Shown here piece after piece: positions 4,346 through 13,852 of a stretch of 26,838 nucleotides of DNA (position 1 is its first letter; each line of letters begins with the position of its first letter). The notes below the pieces were generated by a model that had not been told where the DNA came from, made no database searches, and saw only the letters and a list, made by a program, of their open reading frames with translations. The stretch is from a virus (lineage: Duplodnaviria; Heunggongvirae; Uroviricota; Caudoviricetes): the IMG/VR virus record IMGVR_UViG_2537562220_000008; one strand, written 5' to 3'. Position numbers and translations under genes: made by a program.

Positions 4346-4924
4346 TCAACTGCTCCCGTGGTTATAACTGCCATCATGGATGGCGGTATTGTTATAGCGA
4401 ATGGCCACAGACTGATACTCCAGGCTGGCCAGATGGCAGCGGGCCGGTGCAAATGCAGCCAGCGTCTGACGCAGCATCGCGGCCTGATCGTTAGTAATGG
4501 GCTGTTTCAGAATAACGCGATAAACTGCCCAGGCGGCTGCATCTCCATGAACAAACAGTCCGTTATAGCTGCGATTGCCGTCGTAACTGAGACGACCTGT
4601 GCCTTCAATCAGATCCACTTCACCAAAGCCAAAACGGCGGATAACTTCCCGGATTGACCACGGCGTCCCTTTATACCGGTGCAGTTCGATGGCTGCTTTT
4701 ATAAGCATGCGGCGAACATCGTCCGATTCCGCCAGCTCCCAGCCATCGCCAGACAGTGAGAACTGCTCGCCCAGCCATGGCAGCGCGGAACTGTCGACGA
4801 TATCGACGAGAAAGACCATCAGTACGCTCAGGTCGATGTTATCCAGCCGTCCTGCCAGTCTTCCCAGCGTCCTGAGACTGATATCACCCTCAAGCGGTGG
4901 CGGGAGTTGTAATGGCTCAGTCAT
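4346..4924 (-). CDS. Baseplate/tail protein, P2 gpI-like (Mu gp48-like)
   Basis: 192-aa ORF immediately upstream of the tail fibre; start overlaps the stop of the J-like gene; size and position match gpI. Confidence 0.6.
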   Translation of the reverse strand: MTEPLQLPPPLEGDISLRTLGRLAGRLDNIDLSVLMVFLVDIVDSSALPWLGEQFSLSGDGWELAESDDVRRMLIKAAIELHRYKGTPWSIREVIRRFGFGEVDLIEGTGRLSYDGNRSYNGLFVHGDAAAWAVYRVILKQPITNDQAAMLRQTLAAFAPARCHLASLEYQSVAIRYNNTAIHDGSYNHGSS

Positions 4925-6020
4925 CAGACACTCCAGTCATGTTAAGAGTGATTGCCGTACAGTTTGCCCATTCGTTTTCTGCCACCACCCGCAGTGCCGG
5001 TGTCACCAGTTCAACCTGGTACACCCCGGAAACGGACAATGCACTGATAATCTGGCTGGGGACAATATCGCGCCCCAGCGTGGCGGCACGTGATGCCACC
5101 CAGTTCTGTATGGCGCTGTTAGCGGCATCTTTTACAGACCTGGCATCCTGATCACGATAGATCGTAATCCTGGCTTCAATGGTGTAATCCACCTTCACTG
5201 GTGTTTTAGCCCGCACTGTATCAGTGAGTGGCCTGACTTTCTCATCAGAGCAGAAACTCTCTACCAGCGTGAGAACACCGCCGTCCGGCAGACCGGTACT
5301 GAGCAGCGGATACAGATCTACGGTCCCGGGAACCGGGGAAAGCACAGCAACATCGACAATGTTGGGATGGGCCTGCATGGCATGAAAGCGGTATGCGCCA
5401 CGGCTTCCGGCATTGGTGAATGACTCCGGGGCCAGCCTGATACGCTCCCGGAGCCTGTCATCGTCTTCCTGTTCTGAACCGCCGGAACTGGCCGTCAGAT
5501 TGCTCACCAGCAGGTCGACGTTATCAATCTCATCGAGTAACTGACTGACCTGCGCAGGTTGCCAGCCGTTACCAGCGGTACCGGGTTCGGTACAGGTGGA
5601 CGTGACATTGACCAGCAGCAATCCGGCCTTCAGTACCACATCTGTATCGGTGGCAAAAATAACGCTGTCGGAAGCGCTGACGCGGGTGCCTGCCGGGATC
5701 AGCACATCAATGGCCAGTGCCTCATCTACGGAGAACTGGAGCGTGGTGGTGGCAGGCTGCGCGGCAAGACGGTATACACCAACCAGTTCACCGAGGTAAT
5801 CAATCATCGGCTCACGGGCAAAGGCGACCAGATTCTGCTTTGCTGCCTCCTGTACCGCAACCCTGACCAGCATTTCGCGATAGGCCCACAGATCAATCAG
5901 CAGACGTTCTGCCTGTGCCGGGTACAGCGTTTTGCCGGTATCCGCTTCATACTTCGCAATCATTTCTGCCGTAATTTTGTCGGCATCGCGTTCAATAAAA
6001 TCGGGTTCTGTCAGCGCCAT
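4917..6020 (-). CDS. Baseplate wedge protein, P2 gpJ-like (Mu gp47-like)
   Basis: 367-aa ORF between the W-like and I-like genes with overlapping stops and starts; call is by synteny and size. Confidence 0.6.
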   Translation of the reverse strand: MALTEPDFIERDADKITAEMIAKYEADTGKTLYPAQAERLLIDLWAYREMLVRVAVQEAAKQNLVAFAREPMIDYLGELVGVYRLAAQPATTTLQFSVDEALAIDVLIPAGTRVSASDSVIFATDTDVVLKAGLLLVNVTSTCTEPGTAGNGWQPAQVSQLLDEIDNVDLLVSNLTASSGGSEQEDDDRLRERIRLAPESFTNAGSRGAYRFHAMQAHPNIVDVAVLSPVPGTVDLYPLLSTGLPDGGVLTLVESFCSDEKVRPLTDTVRAKTPVKVDYTIEARITIYRDQDARSVKDAANSAIQNWVASRAATLGRDIVPSQIISALSVSGVYQVELVTPALRVVAENEWANCTAITLNMTGVSDD

Positions 6021-8360: not shown

Positions 8361-9244
8361 CACACACTCCTCGTCAGTATTCTGGCGGCCATTGCACTTA
8401 ATCCCGGAGACATGCGGTTGAATGCTGTTCCGACGGCGTTAAGCTGCCCGGAAACGGTATCCAGAGCACCTGCAATATTTCTTTTGTCCACACCACTCAG
8501 CGCAGACTGTGCCTGCTGTACATACGTGGCTGCTTCGCTGGCTGTTCTGGCCAGACTGATGGCATCGGGCATGGATTCAGAGAGTGCGTTAAACGCCGGA
8601 ACACTTTTCCCCAGAGCCCCGGAGATATTACCCAGTCCGCTCATCAGCCCCGGCACACGGGTCAGTGCGACAACGGGGTTATCCTTCATTTTCTGTGTCA
8701 CCCGAACGGCGCTGATAGTGGTCTGGAGTACAGACTGCGCCTGTTTCGCATAGTTGACGCCGTTGCGGATGAACTGCGCCACCCCGGAAGGTGAAGGAAT
8801 GGCACCGGAGACCGCCCCGACACCCGGGAGCTTCGTGCGTATTGCCGGTGGTTGCAGAGGATTTTTCGGGTCACCGGTGTATTCCCGGAGAGACACGGTG
8901 GCACTGACAGCCAGCACGTTGCCGATACTGTCAGTCTGCTCGCTGGTTGCAGTCACATCGGTAATCACGAACCAGCCGCGATAGTCACCGTTGCCGAAGA
9001 CCAGCGCCAGTGCCTGATGGGCTTTCATGGCTGTTCGCAGTCTCGCCAGCTCCACATCGGGTACACAATAATGCTGATGGAAAACCAGAGTTATCTGGAT
9101 TTCGTCCAGCCTGTCGCCGACGAACTGCAGGCCAGGCTTACCCCCGATGCGGGCATGCTCCGCATAATCGACGCCGAACGTGGCCTCGAAGCCGTCCCAG
9201 TAGGTAATCAGCTCAAACTCAATATCACCCAGTACGGCAAACAT
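8360..9244 (-). CDS. Tail protein, P2 gpU-like / Mu N (DNA circularisation)-like
   Basis: 294-aa ORF immediately downstream of the tape measure (ATGA overlap); N-terminal region (...GKPGLQFVGDRLDEIQITLVF...) resembles gpU-type tail proteins as I recall them. Confidence 0.5.
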   Translation of the reverse strand: MFAVLGDIEFELITYWDGFEATFGVDYAEHARIGGKPGLQFVGDRLDEIQITLVFHQHYCVPDVELARLRTAMKAHQALALVFGNGDYRGWFVITDVTATSEQTDSIGNVLAVSATVSLREYTGDPKNPLQPPAIRTKLPGVGAVSGAIPSPSGVAQFIRNGVNYAKQAQSVLQTTISAVRVTQKMKDNPVVALTRVPGLMSGLGNISGALGKSVPAFNALSESMPDAISLARTASEAATYVQQAQSALSGVDKRNIAGALDTVSGQLNAVGTAFNRMSPGLSAMAARILTRSV

Positions 9245-12200
9245 CAGCGGTACTCCTTACGTTGTTTCTGAGCAAGCAGACGCTCCAGCATTTTTTCCAG
9301 CTCATGCAGACTCATATTCAGGGCACCAGTCAGTCCTGCAGGCGCTGTGGTTTCCCTGCCATTGAGGAAAAACTGAGGATTAAAGCTGACCTGGATACCA
9401 CCAGACGTTCCACCGCCGGTTGCAGCTGCACCACGGCCTGAATATCCGGCAGCCAGGATTTCAGGCGAGGGGATACGGGGAACATCCGGTGTCATCTCAT
9501 TTGCCAGACGTTGCCCTGGTAAAATCGATGCCCGGGTGGAGAGCGGAATAGCGGGCATGGAAGACAAACTATTGATTACGGCTCCGATCGCATTTTTAGC
9601 AGACGACATAAACCCATTGATATCGGGCAACGGCATACTGAAGCGAACACCTGAAGTGTTATCCCGTATTTCTGGCCCCTGAATGCTCACGGGCATTTTG
9701 GGGAGCAGTTCACTGGCCATTCGCTGCCCGGCCAGAGCTGCAAGCGGAGTGGTCCGCTGCAGGCCAATGGCGGCCCCCTGCGCGATATTGTCACCAAAGC
9801 CCATAAACACGCGGCTCGGCGAATGAATGCCCAGCTTTTCGCTGAACCAGCCACTGATGCTGTCGCCCATTCCGGTTACACTGGATTTGAGCGACTCCCA
9901 TTTGTTTTTGATACCGTTAATCAGACCATCGACAAGATGGCCACCGAAGTCGGTAAACTTTGCCGGCAGATCAACACCAAGATATTTCAGCGCAGCTGCA
10001 AAGGCTTTATAGAGCAGACCTGCCGGCGACCAGTTAATCAGCAGCTTACCAGTTCCCGCGATACCGCCGTTAAAGGCTTCCTGAATGTCAGCCCAGCACT
10101 GTTTAAACCAGCTACTGATGCTGTCACCCATTCCGGTTACACTGGATTTGAGCGACCCCCATTTGTTTTTGATACCGTTAATCAGACCGTCGATAAGATG
10201 GCCACCGAAGTCGGTGAACTTTGCCGGCAGAGTAACGCCGAAATATTTCAGCGCAGCCGCAAAGGCTTTATAGAGCAGGCCTGCCGGCGACCAGTTAATC
10301 AGCAACTTACCAGTTCCCACAATGCCGCCGTTAAAGGCTTCCTGAATGTCAGCCCAGCGCTGTTTAAACCAGCTACTGATGCTGTCACCCATTCCGGTTA
10401 CACTGGATTTGAGCGACCCCCATTTGCTTTTGATACCGTTAATCAGACCGTCGATAAGATGGCCACCGAAGTCGGTGAACTTTGCCGGCAGAGCAACGCC
10501 GAAATATTTCAGCGCAGCCGCAAAGGCTTTATAGAGCAGGCCTGCCGGCGACCAGTTAATCAGCAACTTACCAGTTCCCACAATGCCGCCGTTAAAGGCT
10601 TCCTGAATGTCAGCCCAGCGCTGTTTAAACCAACCACTGACAGCCCCCCAGTTGCGGTAGATAAGGTAAGCTGCTGCCGCGACAGCGGTGATAACGAGAC
10701 CGATGGGATTCATCATCAGCGCTCGCCCAATCCAGAGAACGGCACGTGCAGCGCTCATAAAACCGCGAACGAGGCTGCCCGCCAGAACTTTGCTGAGTTT
10801 CAGTCCTCCGCTGGTCAGTCGGCTGAATCCAGTGACAAGCCAGCGTAATTTGCCACCTTCTCCGAGTGCGGTAGTCAGTCGATGCCAGTTGGTCCGGAGT
10901 AAAACAGCATTTTTCCAGACACTTACAAAGGGGGAAATAAGGAGATTCAGCCCCAGTTTGAGACCAACAGTCGCTATCTTAATCGCAAGGAGCGCACTGA
11001 TGAGCTTAAAAGCCCCACTGACAAATTGCGGGTGAGTCGCTACCCAGTGTTTTGCCCCCTGAATGAGTGGAAGCAGTTCCTGAGTCAAAGAAATAAAAGA
11101 TGGAGCTAATTGATCGCCCAGCGTAATTGCCAGATCGCGACTGCTGACCATAAGTGTTTTAGTGGCTTCAAGGGGAGATTTCAGTCGCTGATCGTAAGCA
11201 CTGGCAAGCAAATCGTTATCCGCAGCCCTGAGAGCACCGGCACGGATCTCTCGATATCTGTCCATGTTGGCCAGCATCGGGCGGATAAATGCCATGACCT
11301 GCATATCCGCGAACATATCACCCAGACCAAAGTTTTTCGCCAGAGCCTGAAGTGCCTCATCTCTTGCCGTATCATTCTTTATTTTCATGGCGGATTTGAA
11401 GCCGGCCAGCGCTTCGGGGCTTTTGGCATTGAGGTAACGTTCTATAACACTCAACATCCCTTCAATCGGAGAGATCCCCGCAGCCTTATAACTCGCAATA
11501 GATCCCTGCAAATCAATACCCAGATCAGCAAACTGTTTCTGAGTATCGCGGGCAAAAATTTTGGTAAGAAAGTTTTTAAAATTATTGGCTGCTTCGTCGG
11601 TGGAACCTGCACCGATTTTTGCTATCTGGAGACTGGCCCCGATTTCAGCAACAGCCTCTTTTCCACTGGCAATACCCGCCATCATTGGGGCCAGGGACTG
11701 CATCCACTTGACCTGATCCGGGATTTCAAATGACCCCTGGTCACCGGCATAAGCCATAATATTCTGAACGGCACCAAAATCTCTGGCCGCACCTTTCAGG
11801 GAGTTTTGCCAGACTGCGGCCACTTTTGCCCAGTCCTGAGCAGACGTGCGTGTTGCCGTTGCCGCGCGGGCAATATCCGGCATCAGAAAACCGATATCTG
11901 ACACATTATCAATATTGTCGCTGATGAGTGAACCCACCGCCTCCTGCAGCTCATCCTGATACTGATTGTATTTAAGCGCCCAGCCTTTTATCTGTCCGGC
12001 AAGTGCATCCCGCGTTTTATTGTCATATTTTGCGGTGATCGACATATCAATCATTTTGTCCTGAAAAGACATGGACTGCTGAACGGCAGGGGAAACCGTA
12101 TGATAAACAGTCTGTGCCATGCCATACGCTTCAATCCCCTGACCATACAGCGCCATGCGGTTAGCTTTCAGCGCATCACTGGTAGCGGATGCCGCTGACA

Positions 12201-12456
12201 GACGGCGCTGCTGGCGCTCAATTTGCTCCATGGTGCGGCTTACCCGCAGCAGCTCGCTGTTGAGATGCTGCATCCGGGAAGAACCCAGTTGACCATAACG
12301 TTCTGTTGCACGGGTTAAAGCGTTCTGACGTTCCTGCAGGCGGCGTGAGGTATCGCTCAGGGAATCAAGCGCACGGCGGGGACCGCTCATTGCAGAACGG
12401 AATGTGCTGCCAATCATCCCGCCGATAACAACGCCGACTGAAAACTGTCCCGACAT
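9244..12456 (-). CDS. Tail tape measure protein
   Basis: 1070-aa ORF, the largest in the cluster, helix-rich, downstream of the tail chaperone gene and containing internal tandem repeats; ATG at 12456 preceded by GGAGG. Confidence 0.85.
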   Translation of the reverse strand: MSGQFSVGVVIGGMIGSTFRSAMSGPRRALDSLSDTSRRLQERQNALTRATERYGQLGSSRMQHLNSELLRVSRTMEQIERQQRRLSAASATSDALKANRMALYGQGIEAYGMAQTVYHTVSPAVQQSMSFQDKMIDMSITAKYDNKTRDALAGQIKGWALKYNQYQDELQEAVGSLISDNIDNVSDIGFLMPDIARAATATRTSAQDWAKVAAVWQNSLKGAARDFGAVQNIMAYAGDQGSFEIPDQVKWMQSLAPMMAGIASGKEAVAEIGASLQIAKIGAGSTDEAANNFKNFLTKIFARDTQKQFADLGIDLQGSIASYKAAGISPIEGMLSVIERYLNAKSPEALAGFKSAMKIKNDTARDEALQALAKNFGLGDMFADMQVMAFIRPMLANMDRYREIRAGALRAADNDLLASAYDQRLKSPLEATKTLMVSSRDLAITLGDQLAPSFISLTQELLPLIQGAKHWVATHPQFVSGAFKLISALLAIKIATVGLKLGLNLLISPFVSVWKNAVLLRTNWHRLTTALGEGGKLRWLVTGFSRLTSGGLKLSKVLAGSLVRGFMSAARAVLWIGRALMMNPIGLVITAVAAAAYLIYRNWGAVSGWFKQRWADIQEAFNGGIVGTGKLLINWSPAGLLYKAFAAALKYFGVALPAKFTDFGGHLIDGLINGIKSKWGSLKSSVTGMGDSISSWFKQRWADIQEAFNGGIVGTGKLLINWSPAGLLYKAFAAALKYFGVTLPAKFTDFGGHLIDGLINGIKNKWGSLKSSVTGMGDSISSWFKQCWADIQEAFNGGIAGTGKLLINWSPAGLLYKAFAAALKYLGVDLPAKFTDFGGHLVDGLINGIKNKWESLKSSVTGMGDSISGWFSEKLGIHSPSRVFMGFGDNIAQGAAIGLQRTTPLAALAGQRMASELLPKMPVSIQGPEIRDNTSGVRFSMPLPDINGFMSSAKNAIGAVINSLSSMPAIPLSTRASILPGQRLANEMTPDVPRIPSPEILAAGYSGRGAAATGGGTSGGIQVSFNPQFFLNGRETTAPAGLTGALNMSLHELEKMLERLLAQKQRKEYR
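9853..10635. repeat. Three tandem 261-bp (87-aa) repeats inside the tape measure gene
   Basis: Protein shows three near-identical units SWFKQRWADIQEAFNGGIVGTGKLLINWSPAGLLYKAFAAALKYFGV.LPAKFTDFGGHLIDGLINGIK.KWGSLKSSVTGMGDSIS; the three near-identical antisense ORFs at 9827, 10085 and 10346 are a by-product. Confidence 0.85.
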
Positions 12457-12505: not shown

Positions 12506-12526
12506 ACAGCCGCTACTGGCGGCTGT
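12506..12526 (-). terminator. Stem-loop between chaperone and tape measure genes (possible attenuator or mRNA structure)
   Basis: ACAGCCGC-TACTG-GCGGCTGT: 8-bp perfect stem with 5-nt loop, between the chaperone stop (12532) and the tape measure start (12456); only a weak U-tract follows. Confidence 0.3.
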
Positions 12527-12531
12527 CTGTA

Positions 12532-12640
12532 CTATGATTTGTCGCCGTACTCGCTTTTGATTTGCTCTTCAGCCTGCTCCAGCCACATCTCCAGATCGTC
12601 AGTATCGAGGGCATCAATCTCCCCCGGCTGAAACCGGAAC
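12532..12640 (-). CDS. Tail chaperone C-terminal extension (E'-like) reached by an apparent +1 frameshift
   Basis: The +1 frame continues past the chaperone stop into a well-formed acidic segment ...QPGEIDALDTDDLEMWLEQAEEQIKSEYGDKS; upstream of the overlap that frame is implausible, so an independent gene is unlikely. Confidence 0.5.
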
Positions 12641-12949
12641 CATCTCGCCAGCAGCCCCTGCGCCTGCGTCAGCGCCCTGGTTGCTCTCACCCATCCCCGT
12701 GATGAGCTGAAATCGTTTCTGTAACTGCAGGTAATCAGCCAGATCCATATTGTCGAGATCCTCCGGGAGAAGACCAGTACTGCGGGCAATCAGCGGTTCG
12801 TCCCAGTCTGCCGGGTTTTTGCTGATTTTGCGCACCTGCTTCAGGTCTTTTACCGTCAGGCGTTTCAGTTCAACCAGCTCAATTCTGGTGCCTGCAGCAG
12901 TGGTGAAGGGATAAGACAATTTAAAAGTATCGGATGGGGTCTGTGACAT
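12614..12949 (-). CDS. Tail assembly chaperone (P2 gpE-like)
   Basis: 111-aa ORF directly upstream of the tape measure with an overlapping downstream frame; ATG at 12949 preceded by AGGAG. Confidence 0.7.
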   Translation of the reverse strand: MSQTPSDTFKLSYPFTTAAGTRIELVELKRLTVKDLKQVRKISKNPADWDEPLIARSTGLLPEDLDNMDLADYLQLQKRFQLITGMGESNQGADAGAGAAGEMVPVSAGGD

Positions 12950-13024: not shown

Positions 13025-13040
13025 AGGGGCCGGAGCCCCT
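13025..13040 (-). terminator. Candidate intrinsic terminator after the small ORF
   Basis: AGGGGC-CGGA-GCCCCT hairpin (GC-rich stem) immediately after the stop at 13047, followed on the minus strand by UCUUCUUAAUCUCC. Confidence 0.45.
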
Positions 13041-13046
13041 GTGATG

Positions 13047-13328
13047 TCAGCAAGTGCGAAACCCCTTGCAGTTACGCAGGAAAGCGATGAGAAGCGTCTT
13101 TCCCTCAGATTTGCCGATGCCGGAGAACCAGTGGTCGGGAGGCTCCCATGCTTCAATCAAATCCGCCAGTTTGCGGGCCTTTGAACGTGTGCAGTCAATC
13201 GGGTCATTGGTTTTACGGGTATTAAAAAGGGTTTCCACCCCCGGAATATCAAGGAGGGTAAACCACGTACCATTTGACATGCCCAGTGCCGCACATCGTC
13301 CTCCTTTATCCGTCAGTTCAACACTCAC
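13047..13328 (-). CDS. Hypothetical protein (no family recognised), between tail tube and chaperone genes
   Basis: 93-codon ORF with a GTG start 2 nt after the tube stop and followed by a hairpin; an antisense ORF (13054-13347) also exists, so coding status is uncertain. Confidence 0.35.
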   Translation of the reverse strand: MSVELTDKGGRCAALGMSNGTWFTLLDIPGVETLFNTRKTNDPIDCTRSKARKLADLIEAWEPPDHWFSGIGKSEGKTLLIAFLRNCKGFRTC

Positions 13329-13330
13329 CG

Positions 13331-13852
13331 TCAGCCCCCGATATTGATACGGTAGTCAGTCAGTTGATCAACACCGCCGACCCGGAAGATGTTGGCCAGA
13401 TAGTCCAGTTGCAGCAGCTCTTCCCCATCCAGTACCTGTCTGATATACGTGCAGGTGAAGCTACTGGAGAACTCGGCGTTCTCGTGCTGTTTGAACGTCC
13501 CCAGCGGGTTCTTCTTGAACATAATCGTCAGGAAGGTGACCAGCGGGATTTCGTCAATCAGCCCCTGCGAGCTGTAGCGCTGGACGCTGGAACGACACTG
13601 CAGTGCCAGCGACCTGTACGGGTTCGCGGCAGACAGCATCGCATCGCGGTAAAAGCTGTTCCATTTGATTTCGCCTTCCAGTTTGTCAAAACCAGCCGGG
13701 AGTTCCACCTTACCCACCATCCCCAGCGCCTTGTGTTCCTGCATAATCATGGAGACATCGGGGAGTTTAACTTCCTCAGCCCGTCCCAGCAGGTTAGTAC
13801 CATCCAGATAGATGTTGGCATTCGTGATGCGGTTTATCTCAATCTTTGACAT
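13331..13852 (-). CDS. Tail tube protein (P2 FII / Mu M-like)
   Basis: 173-aa ORF immediately downstream of the sheath gene (ATGA overlap), the canonical sheath-tube order. Confidence 0.75.
   Translation of the reverse strand: MSKIEINRITNANIYLDGTNLLGRAEEVKLPDVSMIMQEHKALGMVGKVELPAGFDKLEGEIKWNSFYRDAMLSAANPYRSLALQCRSSVQRYSSQGLIDEIPLVTFLTIMFKKNPLGTFKQHENAEFSSSFTCTYIRQVLDGEELLQLDYLANIFRVGGVDQLTDYRINIGG

Follow-up and report, generated by a model that had tools for sequence, protein, structure and literature searches.

A tail assembly chaperone pair in BcepMu-like prophages, probably expressed through a programmed +1 frameshift at a conserved UUU_C

Frameshifting in tail chaperone genes is a textbook case of recoding, in which the characterised examples are nearly all -1 shifts on a heptamer and the -2 shift of phage Mu is a noted oddity. 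The locus described here raises the question of how a chaperone gene with an open reading frame in the +1 (equivalently, -2) frame could give rise to an extended product, and where a ribosome would change frame. The locus occupies positions 12532-12949, on the minus strand, of a stretch of viral DNA of 26,838 nucleotides (the window) that belongs to a prophage of BcepMu-like myovirus type and shows 100% identity to Escherichia phage PhiKM (genus Bcepmuvirus). Comparison with relatives suggests that the two frames form a chaperone pair, probably expressed via a programmed +1 shift at UUU_C, a site about 95 bases upstream of the run of G residues near which a first-pass annotation had placed its candidate slip.

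The chaperone ORF had been described as ending at 12614 and as accompanied by an open +1 (or -2) frame, and both elements are present on the minus strand, with the ORF running from 12949 to 12614. Its identity as a tail chaperone is borne out by a strong Pfam match and by its position between the tube and tape-measure genes, an interval that also holds one additional 93-aa ORF upstream of the chaperone. The features of this region are:

13331..13852, minus strand: tail tube gene (PF04985, E=2.9e-53), expected, as for lambda gpGT, to supply the partner of the extension.
12614..12949, minus strand: frame-0 chaperone ORF, encoding the short product of 111 aa, from ATG at 12949 to TGA at 12616-12614.
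nt 12707-12928, minus strand: PF10109 Phage_TAC_7 domain, residues 8-81 (E=5.5e-21; 74.8 bits, the cut-off being 25 bits).
12507..12525, minus strand: GC-rich stem-loop CAGCCGC-CAGTA-GCGGCTG, in the 75-nt gap from the stop of the extension to the start of the tape-measure gene.
9244..12456, minus strand: tape measure protein gene (PF10145), the expected client of the chaperone.

The Pfam name of the matched family PF10109 is 'tail assembly chaperone E/41/14'. Beyond this domain, residues 82-111 of the frame-0 product form a Gly/Ala-rich tail that is freely shortened in relatives, whose frame-0 stops fall at codon 91, 104-106 or 111. An NCBIfam scan of the frame-0 ORF, the +1 peptide and the fusion gave no match, and neither did a PDB sequence search with the fusion as query. 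The stem of the stem-loop at 12507..12525 is kept in relatives and its loop is variable; it carries no T-run, and a terminator scan gave no call there.

The +1 frame, whose codons start 1 nt downstream of those of the chaperone, is open from 12789 to a stop at 12534-12532 and ends ...EIDALDTDDLEMWLEQAEEQIKSEYGDKS. The first-pass annotation had seen in it an acidic continuation of the chaperone. That continuation exists, but it makes up only the C-terminal half of the extension, and the two frames overlap by about 96 nt within the chaperone gene. A +1 shift anywhere in the overlap would yield a fusion of 138 aa, the length already estimated in the first pass and close to the 142 aa of P2 E+E', with which it had been compared; its first half is homologous to P2 E, and its second half likely to E'. 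With the shift position argued for below, the fusion is predicted to comprise 80 aa read in frame 0 and 58 aa read in frame +1. Its parts are:

12532..12708, minus strand: +1-frame extension after the proposed shift, 58 codons (SSSRGWVRATRALTQAQGLLARWFRFQPGEIDALDTDDLEMWLEQAEEQIKSEYGDKS), with stop TAG at 12534-12532.
12553..12651, minus strand: P2 E'-like domain within the extension (probable PF06528 Phage_P2_GpE), LLARWFRFQPGEIDALDTDDLEMWLEQAEEQIK.
12621..12625, minus strand: G5 run within CCGGGGGAG, which in the +1 frame provides Pro-Gly-Glu codons of the E' domain.

Some 170 related loci, belonging to Enterobacterales, Burkholderiales and Pseudomonas, share the +1 geometry, and because it is so conserved the arrangement, judged from these alignments, is not an indel artefact. 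Geometry and +1 peptide are both kept in 65 of 69 tested loci, a set made up of species genomes and six added close relatives, all six of which keep the +1 geometry. The four exceptions are two Pasteurellaceae with a -1 site (G_GGA_AAG) and two loci with single-base deletions. The geometry is likewise found in all 31 distinct BcepMu-clade sequences and in IMG/VR relatives. The first-pass annotation had recognised that the geometry is not the usual -1, and had held that a mutational origin would be betrayed by -1 relatives differing by an indel or by a downstream frame that is not conserved. Alignment with related chaperone pairs revealed no such -1 relatives, and the downstream frame is conserved and runs on past the frame-0 stop in every relative. 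At the chaperone locus itself there is no -1 heptamer, and the -1 frame soon meets a stop.

It is therefore scarcely credible that the prophage is dead, or that the layout arose when a single ORF or a -1 pair was altered by a 1-nt indel or an error of sequencing. Single-ORF versions of 138 aa are present in databases, and one locus (L093, from Apirhabdus) is fused through a 1-nt deletion 14 nt upstream of the conserved TTT described below. However, 637 of 5426 complete E. coli genomes carry the +1 layout with two ORFs, which spans three bacterial orders at 30-100% identity, and contigs with unfused forms are more numerous by hundreds than those with fused forms. Fused database proteins were also considered as proof of a junction and set aside as uninformative, their junctions being scattered at homopolymers.

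The extension is likely homologous to P2 E' (PF06528), as profile and alignment comparisons indicate. The window's +1 peptide scores 15.6-18.4 bits against PF06528 (E=0.0015-0.011), which is below the gathering score of 23, and 9 of 18 diverse +1 peptides match the family at E<=0.01, the best at 6.4e-6; P2 E' itself gives 2.4e-22. The predicted fusions of +1 and -1 phages align end to end, and the P-G-E encoded by the CCGGGGGAG run is aligned with 'PPSEL' of P2 and 'QPSEI' of BcepMu. Where RefSeq calls the +1 ORF alone, its label is 'GpE family phage tail protein'.

Such stand-alone calls raise the alternative that there is no frameshift and that the +1 ORF is a separate gene, of 52 aa from GTG at 12690, with its own start or translated by reinitiation. 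RefSeq calls the same ORF as a stand-alone gene in one genome with the upstream gene deleted, and BcepMu gp42 and phiE255 gp16 are annotated as individual genes. The relatives nevertheless share no conserved start codon in the +1 ORF: the start varies, being GTG in the window, ATG elsewhere in the commonest relatives, and ACA, ATT or AAG in others, and conservation of the +1 frame (an invariant F and W) begins upstream of any candidate start. Nor is there a fixed termination-reinitiation site, because frame 0 stops at four different positions across relatives. In P2, moreover, the E' homologue is expressed only as the E+E' fusion (GenBank AF063097; PMC3091744). Expression as a separate gene thus appears quite unlikely.

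The pattern of substitutions in the overlap indicates where coding passes from one frame to the other. The coding signature was taken as the synonymous fraction of pairwise codon differences, compared between frame 0 and frame +1. This signature switches from frame 0 to +1 roughly 90 nt before the frame-0 stop. Upstream of the TTT at codon 80, the synonymous fraction is 0.654 in frame 0 versus 0.107 in +1; just 3' of the TTT the values are 0.265 and 0.399, respectively; over reference nt 271-312 they are 0.145 and 0.587; and around the G-run (reference nt 313-333) they are 0.0 and 0.872. As an example, TTC CGG, TTT AGA, TTT AGG and TTC AGG all read F-R in the +1 frame, where frame 0 gives P, a stop or Q. 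The +1 frame thus bears the synonymous-substitution signature of a coding frame. Frame 0 is still under some selection over about 6 codons after the TTT (T84 and G85). This residual selection fits dual coding; for this clade alone, it would also agree with a shift lying a few codons further downstream.

The slip had earlier been sought near the CCGGGGGAG run (12621-12628). A shift at its G5 run, before the frame-0 stop, would be +1 on GGG_G or -2 on GGG_GGA, and its product would read ...VSAG(G)EIDALD..., that is, ...MVPVSAG(G)EIDALDTDDLEMWLEQAEEQIK. Re-pairing of tRNA-Gly is possible either way on GCC_GGG_GGA_G, the run closely resembles the -2 site of Mu (CGG_GGG_CGA), and rare database ORFs are fused exactly here (L078, L094, P0003-P0005 and P0007). 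The relatives, however, argue against this site. Of 55 distinct close relatives, 30 (42 of 83 loci) have a frame-0 stop before the run is reached, either at GTT TAG, 7 codons before the window's stop, or at codon 91. The upstream stop is also found in the commonest E. coli form, whose 90-aa frame-0 product is the most widespread in the protein collection (914 contigs). The run itself varies (CCTGGGG, CCAGGGG or CCGAGTG) and is missing from the BcepMu clade, and the approximately 20 +1 codons that precede it (TLxQAQGLLARWFRFQP) are under strong purifying selection and lie within the probable PF06528 domain. Finally, the fused ORFs show heterogeneous homopolymer junctions, as sequencing errors or mutations would give. 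A shift at the G-run is accordingly highly improbable. A Mu-like -2 mechanism was considered as well and rejected, since UUU_C offers no equivalent re-pairing and the families differ.

The preferred site, UUU_C, lies at the C-terminal edge of the PF10109 domain:

12709..12715, minus strand: candidate +1 shift cassette CGA_UUU_C, consisting of Arg79 CGA (12715-12713), Phe80 UUU (12712-12710) and C (12709).

A search for a conserved slippery heptamer, as the first-pass annotation had envisaged, disclosed no heptamer but did disclose this conserved tetranucleotide at codon 80. TTT followed by C (12712-12709) is the sole feature common to all +1 relatives, and 137 loci have it at the aligned codon, as do 31 distinct BcepMu-clade sequences. 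The window reads CGA_UUU_CAG at 12715-12707, with UUU in frame 0 and a pyrimidine after it; among relatives the next frame-0 codon is CAG, CAA, CAT, CGN or CTG (Q, H, R or L), the first base always being C. The TTT is retained despite TTC-dominated Phe usage, with 13 TTT versus 83 TTC in BcepMu, and 0 versus 12 and 0 versus 16 in two further TTC-biased loci that keep it (L091 and L145, respectively). UUU_Ynn is documented as +1-prone in bacteria (PMC5009743).

The position of the shift can be bounded from both sides. Relatives from Ralstonia, Pseudomonas, Undibacterium, Pandoraea and Verminephrobacter have a stop in the +1 frame 8 nt before the TTT, and in L160-L169 frame 0 ends 21 nt after it. 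Both limits hold in L162-164 and L167-169, where the shift is confined to 29 nt (-8 to +21 nt around the TTT). The position is thereby fixed to within a few codons. Within this interval, re-pairing in +1 is possible only at TTT_C; -2 re-pairing at UUU_C would land on GAU and, unlike the +1 slip, would be without pairing support. We infer that the shift is ribosomal and that UUU_C is probably its exact site.

Two neighbouring positions have also been weighed. The first is a +1 shift at ACN_GGG_N (codon 85, 12697-12694), in which tRNA-Gly would move from GGG to GGN and the product would read ...RFQLITG/WVR... (the slash marks the junction). In the enterobacterial clade T84 and G85 vary only synonymously in frame 0, the first invariant +1 residue is a Trp (TGG) directly after the site, and the base after GGG may be A, C, T or G, like a fourfold-degenerate GGN. 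Against this, GGC, GGT or AGC stands in place of GGG in L081, L108, L109, L126-L129 and L142, the site is missing from the betaproteobacterial and BcepMu clades, and in L160-L169 there is no Gly codon between the TTT and the frame-0 stop. A shift here, which would also leave the invariance of TTT_C and CGA unexplained, is improbable.

The second is a shift one codon earlier, with a slow CGA in the A site and either an out-of-frame tRNA-Asp on GAU or a P-site slip, giving ...LQK/DFSSSR.... CGA is a minority Arg codon, with a share of only 8.5% in neighbouring genes, yet it stands directly before the TTT in 59 of 65 loci. The absence of CGT and CGC in its place could be put down to dual coding, provided that the +1 codon GAT is translated. 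However, the preceding codon is variable (AAA, CGT, GAC, GAG, ACC, GGC, GTA or GCC) and mostly unable to re-pair in +1, and lineages with CAC, GTG, TCC, GCC, ACC or TGC instead of CGA retain both the +1 frame and TTT_C. This makes a shift at the CGA codon very unlikely. The near-invariance of CGA before the TTT in the enterobacterial and betaproteobacterial clade is nonetheless a fact for which a simple slip model gives no explanation.

Several kinds of stimulator were looked for around UUU_C. No Shine-Dalgarno-like sequence occurs at a fixed upstream distance among relatives; AGGAG stands 3 nt upstream in only a few of them (L072, L094 and L144) and is absent from the window. An Rfam search gave no match. 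A downstream RNA stimulator was rejected, as single-sequence folds of 20 diverse relatives were mutually discordant, and RNAalifold on 9 sequences gave -7.3 kcal/mol with 0 covarying pairs, the nearest pairs being about 49 nt away. Because no known stimulator was found and the codon after UUU in the window, CAG, is not rare in E. coli, the efficiency of the shift could be low, at the level of non-programmed error.

For a shift at UUU_C, the following course can be proposed. Most ribosomes would stay in frame 0 and make the short chaperone, consisting of the PF10109 domain and a dispensable tail. In a minority, peptidyl-tRNA-Phe on UUU (codon 80, 12712-12710) would slip by one base to UUC, where the G34:C pair would be stronger than the G:U wobble of frame 0. 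The upstream CGA might contribute, possibly through weak I:A pairing in the E site. The slipped ribosomes would then produce the 138-aa fusion, with the 80-aa chaperone domain, a short linker and the P2 E'-like domain. If the two products act like lambda G/GT and P2 E/E+E', the N-terminal part common to both would coat the tape measure protein and the rare C-terminal domain would recruit the tube protein. The efficiency of the shift would set a fixed ratio of short to long product and, if the C-terminal domain does recruit the tube protein, it is therefore this ratio that would matter.

On balance, the comparisons favour the broader view that a clade of BcepMu-like prophages makes a P2-type E+E' protein via programmed +1 frameshifting on a bare UUU_C, with CGA or CGN as a possible modulator. 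Its members occur in roughly 12% of the complete E. coli genomes, as well as in Salmonella, Pectobacterium, Burkholderia, Ralstonia and Pseudomonas. If this view is correct, a phage structural gene would make natural use of a UUU_Y site for +1 recoding, and one chaperone family would employ both -1 shifts (on two different heptamers) and a +1 shift at the same domain boundary, with a -2 solution found in the related Mu gp41 family. A broadly conserved +1 shift on UUU_C would also be a use, preserved in evolution, of a site that is familiar chiefly from E. coli constructs, YopN-TyeA and PA-X. Predictors that need a rare codon or a stop codon after the +1 site would miss the UUU_C here. The upstream CGA (or a downstream CGN) may be a previously unrecognised modulator, and the conserved CGA provides a concrete lead on the effect of the flanking (E-site) codon in +1 shifting. 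The system is experimentally easy, being an inducible E. coli prophage. Among the papers searched, none describes a +1 shift for BcepMu-like or E/E' chaperones; mention of one in Xu 2004, Christie 2002, Schwartz & Curran 1997 or Summer 2004 is possible.

Annotated orthologues are genes gp41, gp42 and gp43 of BcepMu, the type phage of the genus (GenBank AY539836). In that record gp42 is put forward as the counterpart of G, with gp43 arising from it by slippage, whereas the present comparison pairs gp41 with gp42, the latter being a +1-frame E' homologue that overlaps gp41. The published gp42/gp43 assignment is thus probably wrong, and none of the inspected GenBank and RefSeq annotations, that of BcepMu included, lists the long product. 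The stretch assigned to gp43 is overlapped, on the other strand, by an ORF resembling a membrane-protein gene.

The -2 frameshift of phage Mu, between gp41 and Mu_56, was reportedly verified by Xu, Hendrix and Duda in 2004. Mu and the locus described here have several features in common: both belong to Mu-like transposable myoviruses, the gene position is the same, a G5 run is present in both, and relative to frame 0 the two extensions occupy the same frame (+1 being equivalent to -2). Mu, however, shifts on CGG_GGG_CGA with an extra Gly, and the G-run here is not the site. The proteins also differ in family, Mu gp41 belonging to PF23746 (9.1e-35, with only 24.7 bits for PF10109) and the chaperone here matching only PF10109; the Mu gp41 extension gave no match to PF06528.

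Shifts of -1, -2 and +1 are all known among tail chaperones (PMC5009743). In phage lambda, gpG and gpGT follow the same logic as the pair proposed here, with a shared N-terminus, a fixed ratio and a position between the major tail and tape-measure genes, and neither product of this type is expected in virions (PMC5009743). Lambda has no sequence similarity to the present locus and uses -1 on G_GGA_AAG, a site that is also used by the Pasteurellaceae relatives of the chaperone family here.

Outside tail genes, +1 shifting at UUU_Ynn has been described in E. coli test systems, in Yersinia YopN-TyeA and in influenza A PA-X, at UCC_UUU_CGU (PMC5009743). These cases share the shift tetranucleotide with the present locus, and none needs an adjacent stop codon. 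The genes are unrelated, and the flanking codons in the window are CGA and CAG. The cassette of BcepMu, UCC_UUU_CGC, matches that of PA-X in 8 of 9 bases.

A parallel in domain composition is P2 gpE/gpE+E', which has PF10109 followed by PF06528, likely the same two domains as here, and the same place between the tube (FII) and tape-measure (T) genes. The products are of 91 and 142 aa in P2 and of 111 and 138 aa here, and the overlap is 20 nt in P2 versus about 96 nt here. In both systems the shift falls, or is proposed to fall, on a Phe codon at the C-terminal edge of the PF10109 domain; F84 of P2 is at about profile position 77 and F80 here at about 74, some 3 positions apart and not demonstrably in the same column. 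The direction differs, P2 shifting -1 at T_TTT_TTG, a tandem-slippage heptamer, and the locus here probably shifting +1 at the tetranucleotide UUU_C.

Every gene in the region around the chaperone lies on the minus strand, in the following order:

15279-13852, minus strand: tail sheath
13852-13331, minus strand: tail tube (PF04985)
13328-13047, minus strand: 93-aa ORF between tube and chaperone
12949-12614, minus strand: 111-aa chaperone ORF (PF10109)
12456-9244, minus strand: tape measure protein, 1070 aa (PF10145)

Residues 8-81 of the 111-aa ORF match the Pfam family PF10109, 'tail assembly chaperone E/41/14' (E=5.5e-21). In its own frame (frame 0) the ORF ends at a TGA (12616-12614). The +1 frame, with codons offset by 1 nt in the downstream direction, has no stop between 12789 and a TAG at 12534-12532, and its C-terminal end is ...EIDALDTDDLEMWLEQAEEQIKSEYGDKS. 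The fusion of the two is 138 aa long wherever a +1 shift is placed. The first-pass annotation, which read this pair as a P2 E+E'-like chaperone extended in the +1 (or -2) frame, gave coordinates that all hold, and the right fusion length.

The 93-aa ORF (13047-13328, minus strand) has only a sub-threshold match, to DUF7739 (E=3.5e-5, 24.7 bits vs 27). It is found in E. coli and Klebsiella relatives, and because neither a Salmonella Infantis prophage nor BcepMu has space for it between tube and chaperone, its sequence context makes it look like an inserted accessory gene. Directly 3' of it, ~75 nt ahead of the chaperone start codon and within the presumed single late operon, is a terminator-like hairpin (13025-13040, minus strand; AGGGGCTCCGGCCCCT then TCTTCTTAAT). 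A GC stem-loop (12507-12525, minus strand; CAGCCGC / GCGGCTG) lies between the extension stop and the tape measure start; its stem is kept across relatives while the loop varies, and in some of them (e.g. the locus L070) a T-rich run follows the equivalent structure. The tape measure gene (9244-12456, minus strand) contains a 261-nt tandem repeat (9845-10640; 3.0 copies, 95% identity) encoding three 87-aa repeats (…SWFKQRWADIQEAFNGGIVGTGKLLINWSPAGLLYKAFAAALKYFGV…); a longer tail is the expected effect. Records of relatives break at this repeat, with a 'sequencing gap' in phage PhiKM and a RefSeq pseudogene in SK1144.

The P2 E' segment is modelled by PF06528 (Phage_P2_GpE), against which P2 E' itself scores 2.4e-22, and this profile aligns to LLARWFRFQPGEIDALDTDDLEMWLEQAEEQIK of the extension. 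The window's +1 peptide reaches 15.6-18.4 bits, below the threshold of 23, and 9 of 18 diverse +1 orthologues match at E<=0.01 (best 6.4e-6). In a genome where the extension ORF is called alone, RefSeq names it 'GpE family phage tail protein'.

Relatives were collected from IMG/VR (79), from one-genome-per-species contigs (59) and from IMG/VR with the BcepMu/Pseudomonas branch as query (35), and the phage records of BcepMu, P2, Mu and others were added. Relative to the N-terminal domain, the C-terminal domain is encoded in +1 in 65 of the 69 loci tested and in all 31 distinct BcepMu-branch sequences, across hosts in the Enterobacterales, Burkholderiales and Pseudomonas and at protein identities of 30-100%. 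The exceptions with a -1 extension are the Pasteurellaceae loci L150 and L151 and Pasteurella phage AFS-2018a, which carry a canonical G_GGA_AAG heptamer; in L078, L093 and L094 the two frames are fused through single-base deletions. If the relatives were -1 and this locus differed from them by an indel, the unusual geometry would be a mutation. This is not the case: the +1 layout is shared by the relatives and is thus the conserved state. The observation is confirmed and its interpretation partly supported: a P2 E+E'-type chaperone shift other than -1 appears to be real and conserved, with +1 favoured over -2; the slip site proposed for it was wrong.

That site was the CCGGGGGAG run (G5, 12621-12625) just before the frame-0 stop, and three independent lines rule it out. 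First, frame 0 stops before the run in 30 of 55 distinct close relatives (42 of 83 loci), either at GTT TAG 7 codons before the window's stop or at codon 91, and the 90-aa frame-0 form is found on more contigs (914) than any other form in the protein collection. Because frame 0 ends earlier in these phages, a frame-0 ribosome cannot reach the run, and their extension is still intact. Second, the run is variable (CCTGGGG, CCAGGGG, CCGAGTG) and is missing in the BcepMu branch. Third, the +1 codons before it (…TLxQAQGLLARWFRFQP) are strongly conserved, and changes there are silent in +1 and missense or nonsense in frame 0; TTC CGG, TTT AGA, TTT AGG and TTC AGG, for example, each read F-R in +1. 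Since the PF06528 alignment spans the run, whose position matches P2 'PPSEL' and BcepMu 'QPSEI', it is plain P-G-E coding sequence in mid-domain.

The frame-0 stop is polymorphic among relatives (L022/L023, L025, the protein form P0014 and others), falling at codon 91, ~104-106 or 111. The 90-aa form arises by CAG to TAG, a change that is silent in +1 (ACC to ACT).

Synonymous and non-synonymous pairwise differences were counted per codon in both frames for 46 gap-free relatives.

Synonymous fraction of pairwise differences in the two frames (positions from the chaperone ATG)
Codons 1-79: frame 0, 0.654; +1 frame, 0.107
Nt 241-270: frame 0, 0.265; +1 frame, 0.399
Nt 271-312: frame 0, 0.145; +1 frame, 0.587
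Nt 313-333: frame 0, 0.0; +1 frame, 0.872

Because the fractions reverse, coding selection moves from frame 0 to +1 at about codon 80-90, with a short dual-coding zone at the switch. The frame-0 tail beyond residue ~86 (GESNQGADAGAGAAGEMVPVSAGGD) is freely shortened in relatives and appears to be a side product of +1 coding. Stop codons set closer limits: in relatives from Ralstonia, Pseudomonas, Undibacterium, Pandoraea and Verminephrobacter a +1-frame stop lies 8 nt before codon 80, and frame 0 stops 21 nt after codon 80 in L160-L169 of the BcepMu branch. Both limits apply in L162-164 and L167-169, leaving a 29-nt interval (ACC GAC ACC TTT CGC AGC ATG GTG GAC AAC TGA) in which TTT_C is the sole site where a P-site tRNA can re-pair one base forward. 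The codon aligned with Phe80 is TTT, and the next base C, in all +1 relatives (137 loci plus 31 further distinct sequences); the frame-0 codon that follows is CAG, CAA, CAT, CGN or CTG (Q, H, R, L), its first base constant. TTT is kept in high-GC phages that favour TTC (TTT vs TTC: BcepMu 13 vs 83, L091 0 vs 12, L145 0 vs 16). A shift at the CGA codon preceding UUU, or at ACN_GGG_N five codons downstream, would fit the enterobacterial clade, but neither fits the other clades. A programmed shift into +1 very probably makes the fusion, and UUU_C at 12712-12709, within the cassette CGA_UUU_CAG (12715-12707), is the probable site; the fusion is then predicted to read M1...R79-F80 and to continue with SSSRGWVR...GDKS.

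Variants occur among the relatives. In L093 (Apirhabdus apintestini CP138906, ~1215-1235), the loss of 1 nt, 14 nt before the TTT, creates a single ORF that departs from the predicted +1 product only in the few residues immediately preceding the junction (…YLGCRPDF…), read in +1; the locus is either a naturally occurring 'long form only' variant or the result of a sequencing error. The distant +1-geometry relative L148 (Gallionellaceae MAG, ~1230-1260) has TGT_CTT_CGG_GGG_CTT_ACC_TGA at the aligned position, a prfB-like CUU_C immediately followed by CGG_GGG_C, which is identical to the Mu -2 site string. The Pasteurellaceae loci L092, L150 and L151, with the extension in -1 and the lambda-type G_GGA_AAG slippery heptamer, belong to the same PF10109/E' family, which therefore contains at least three recoding solutions.

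As Schwartz and Curran (1997, NAR 25:2005) are reported to have described, tRNA-Phe, whose anticodon is GAA, decodes UUU through a G:U wobble, and moving to UUC gives it a G:C pair instead. Because of this gain a forward slip would be favoured, with tRNA-Phe moving from UUU to UUC, one base forward. Documented +1-prone sites in bacteria include UUU before a pyrimidine, which needs no adjacent stop codon (Atkins et al. 2016, PMC5009743); the Yersinia YopN-TyeA fusion is proposed to arise at such a site, and the influenza A PA-X cassette is UCC_UUU_CGU (PMC5009743). The BcepMu cassette is UCC_UUU_CGC. Rfam gave no match for a stimulatory element, no downstream stimulatory structure is conserved across the relatives, and no upstream Shine-Dalgarno-like element is consistently placed in them. 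In E. coli the CAG after UUU is not decoded slowly. CGA precedes UUU in 59 of 65 loci, although it accounts for just 8.5% of the Arg codons of neighbouring genes; lineages without it carry CGN after UUU. For RF2, a proposal is that +1 frameshifting increases when pairing in the E site is weaker (PMC5009743); a weak I:A pair at CGA in the E site could, by analogy, promote the shift here.

By homology with P2 E/E+E' and analogy with lambda G/GT, the short product is expected to coat the tape measure protein, and the rare fusion to link that protein to the tube protein via the E'-like domain. Among 5426 complete E. coli genomes, 637 carry the chaperone stretch. Over this stretch the window is 100% identical to Escherichia phage PhiKM (genus Bcepmuvirus), whose record annotates 'tail protein E' only. 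Three E. coli RefSeq records inspected give the intact gene only as a short 'phage tail assembly protein', and none of the phage and RefSeq records examined joins the two ORFs. Reviews list -1, -2 and +1 chaperone shifts in tailed phages (PMC5009743), so the principle of a non-(-1) shift is already known. The apparently new element is this specific +1 UUU_C solution for the BcepMu-like E/E' pair, for which neither the papers nor the records examined gave a description or an annotation; an earlier mention in key older papers is possible.

In the GenBank record of BcepMu (AY539836, L088) the stretches concerned are 4859-5364 and 5065-5667, and the frameshift is assigned to gp42/gp43. The E' homologue gp42 sits in the +1 frame of gp41. 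A 200-aa ORF whose hydrophobic segments resemble those of membrane proteins runs across the gp43 stretch on the other strand, so gp43 itself is possibly not a gene. Mu resembles the window in frame geometry, with an experimentally verified -2 shift on CGG_GGG_CGA, but Mu gp41 belongs to a different family (PF23746) and the Mu extension is unrelated. P2 E/E' is a homologue of the window pair, alike in its domains; unlike the window it shifts -1, on T_TTT_TTG. Both shifts fall on Phe codons, which lie ~3 profile positions apart where PF10109 ends on its C-terminal side.
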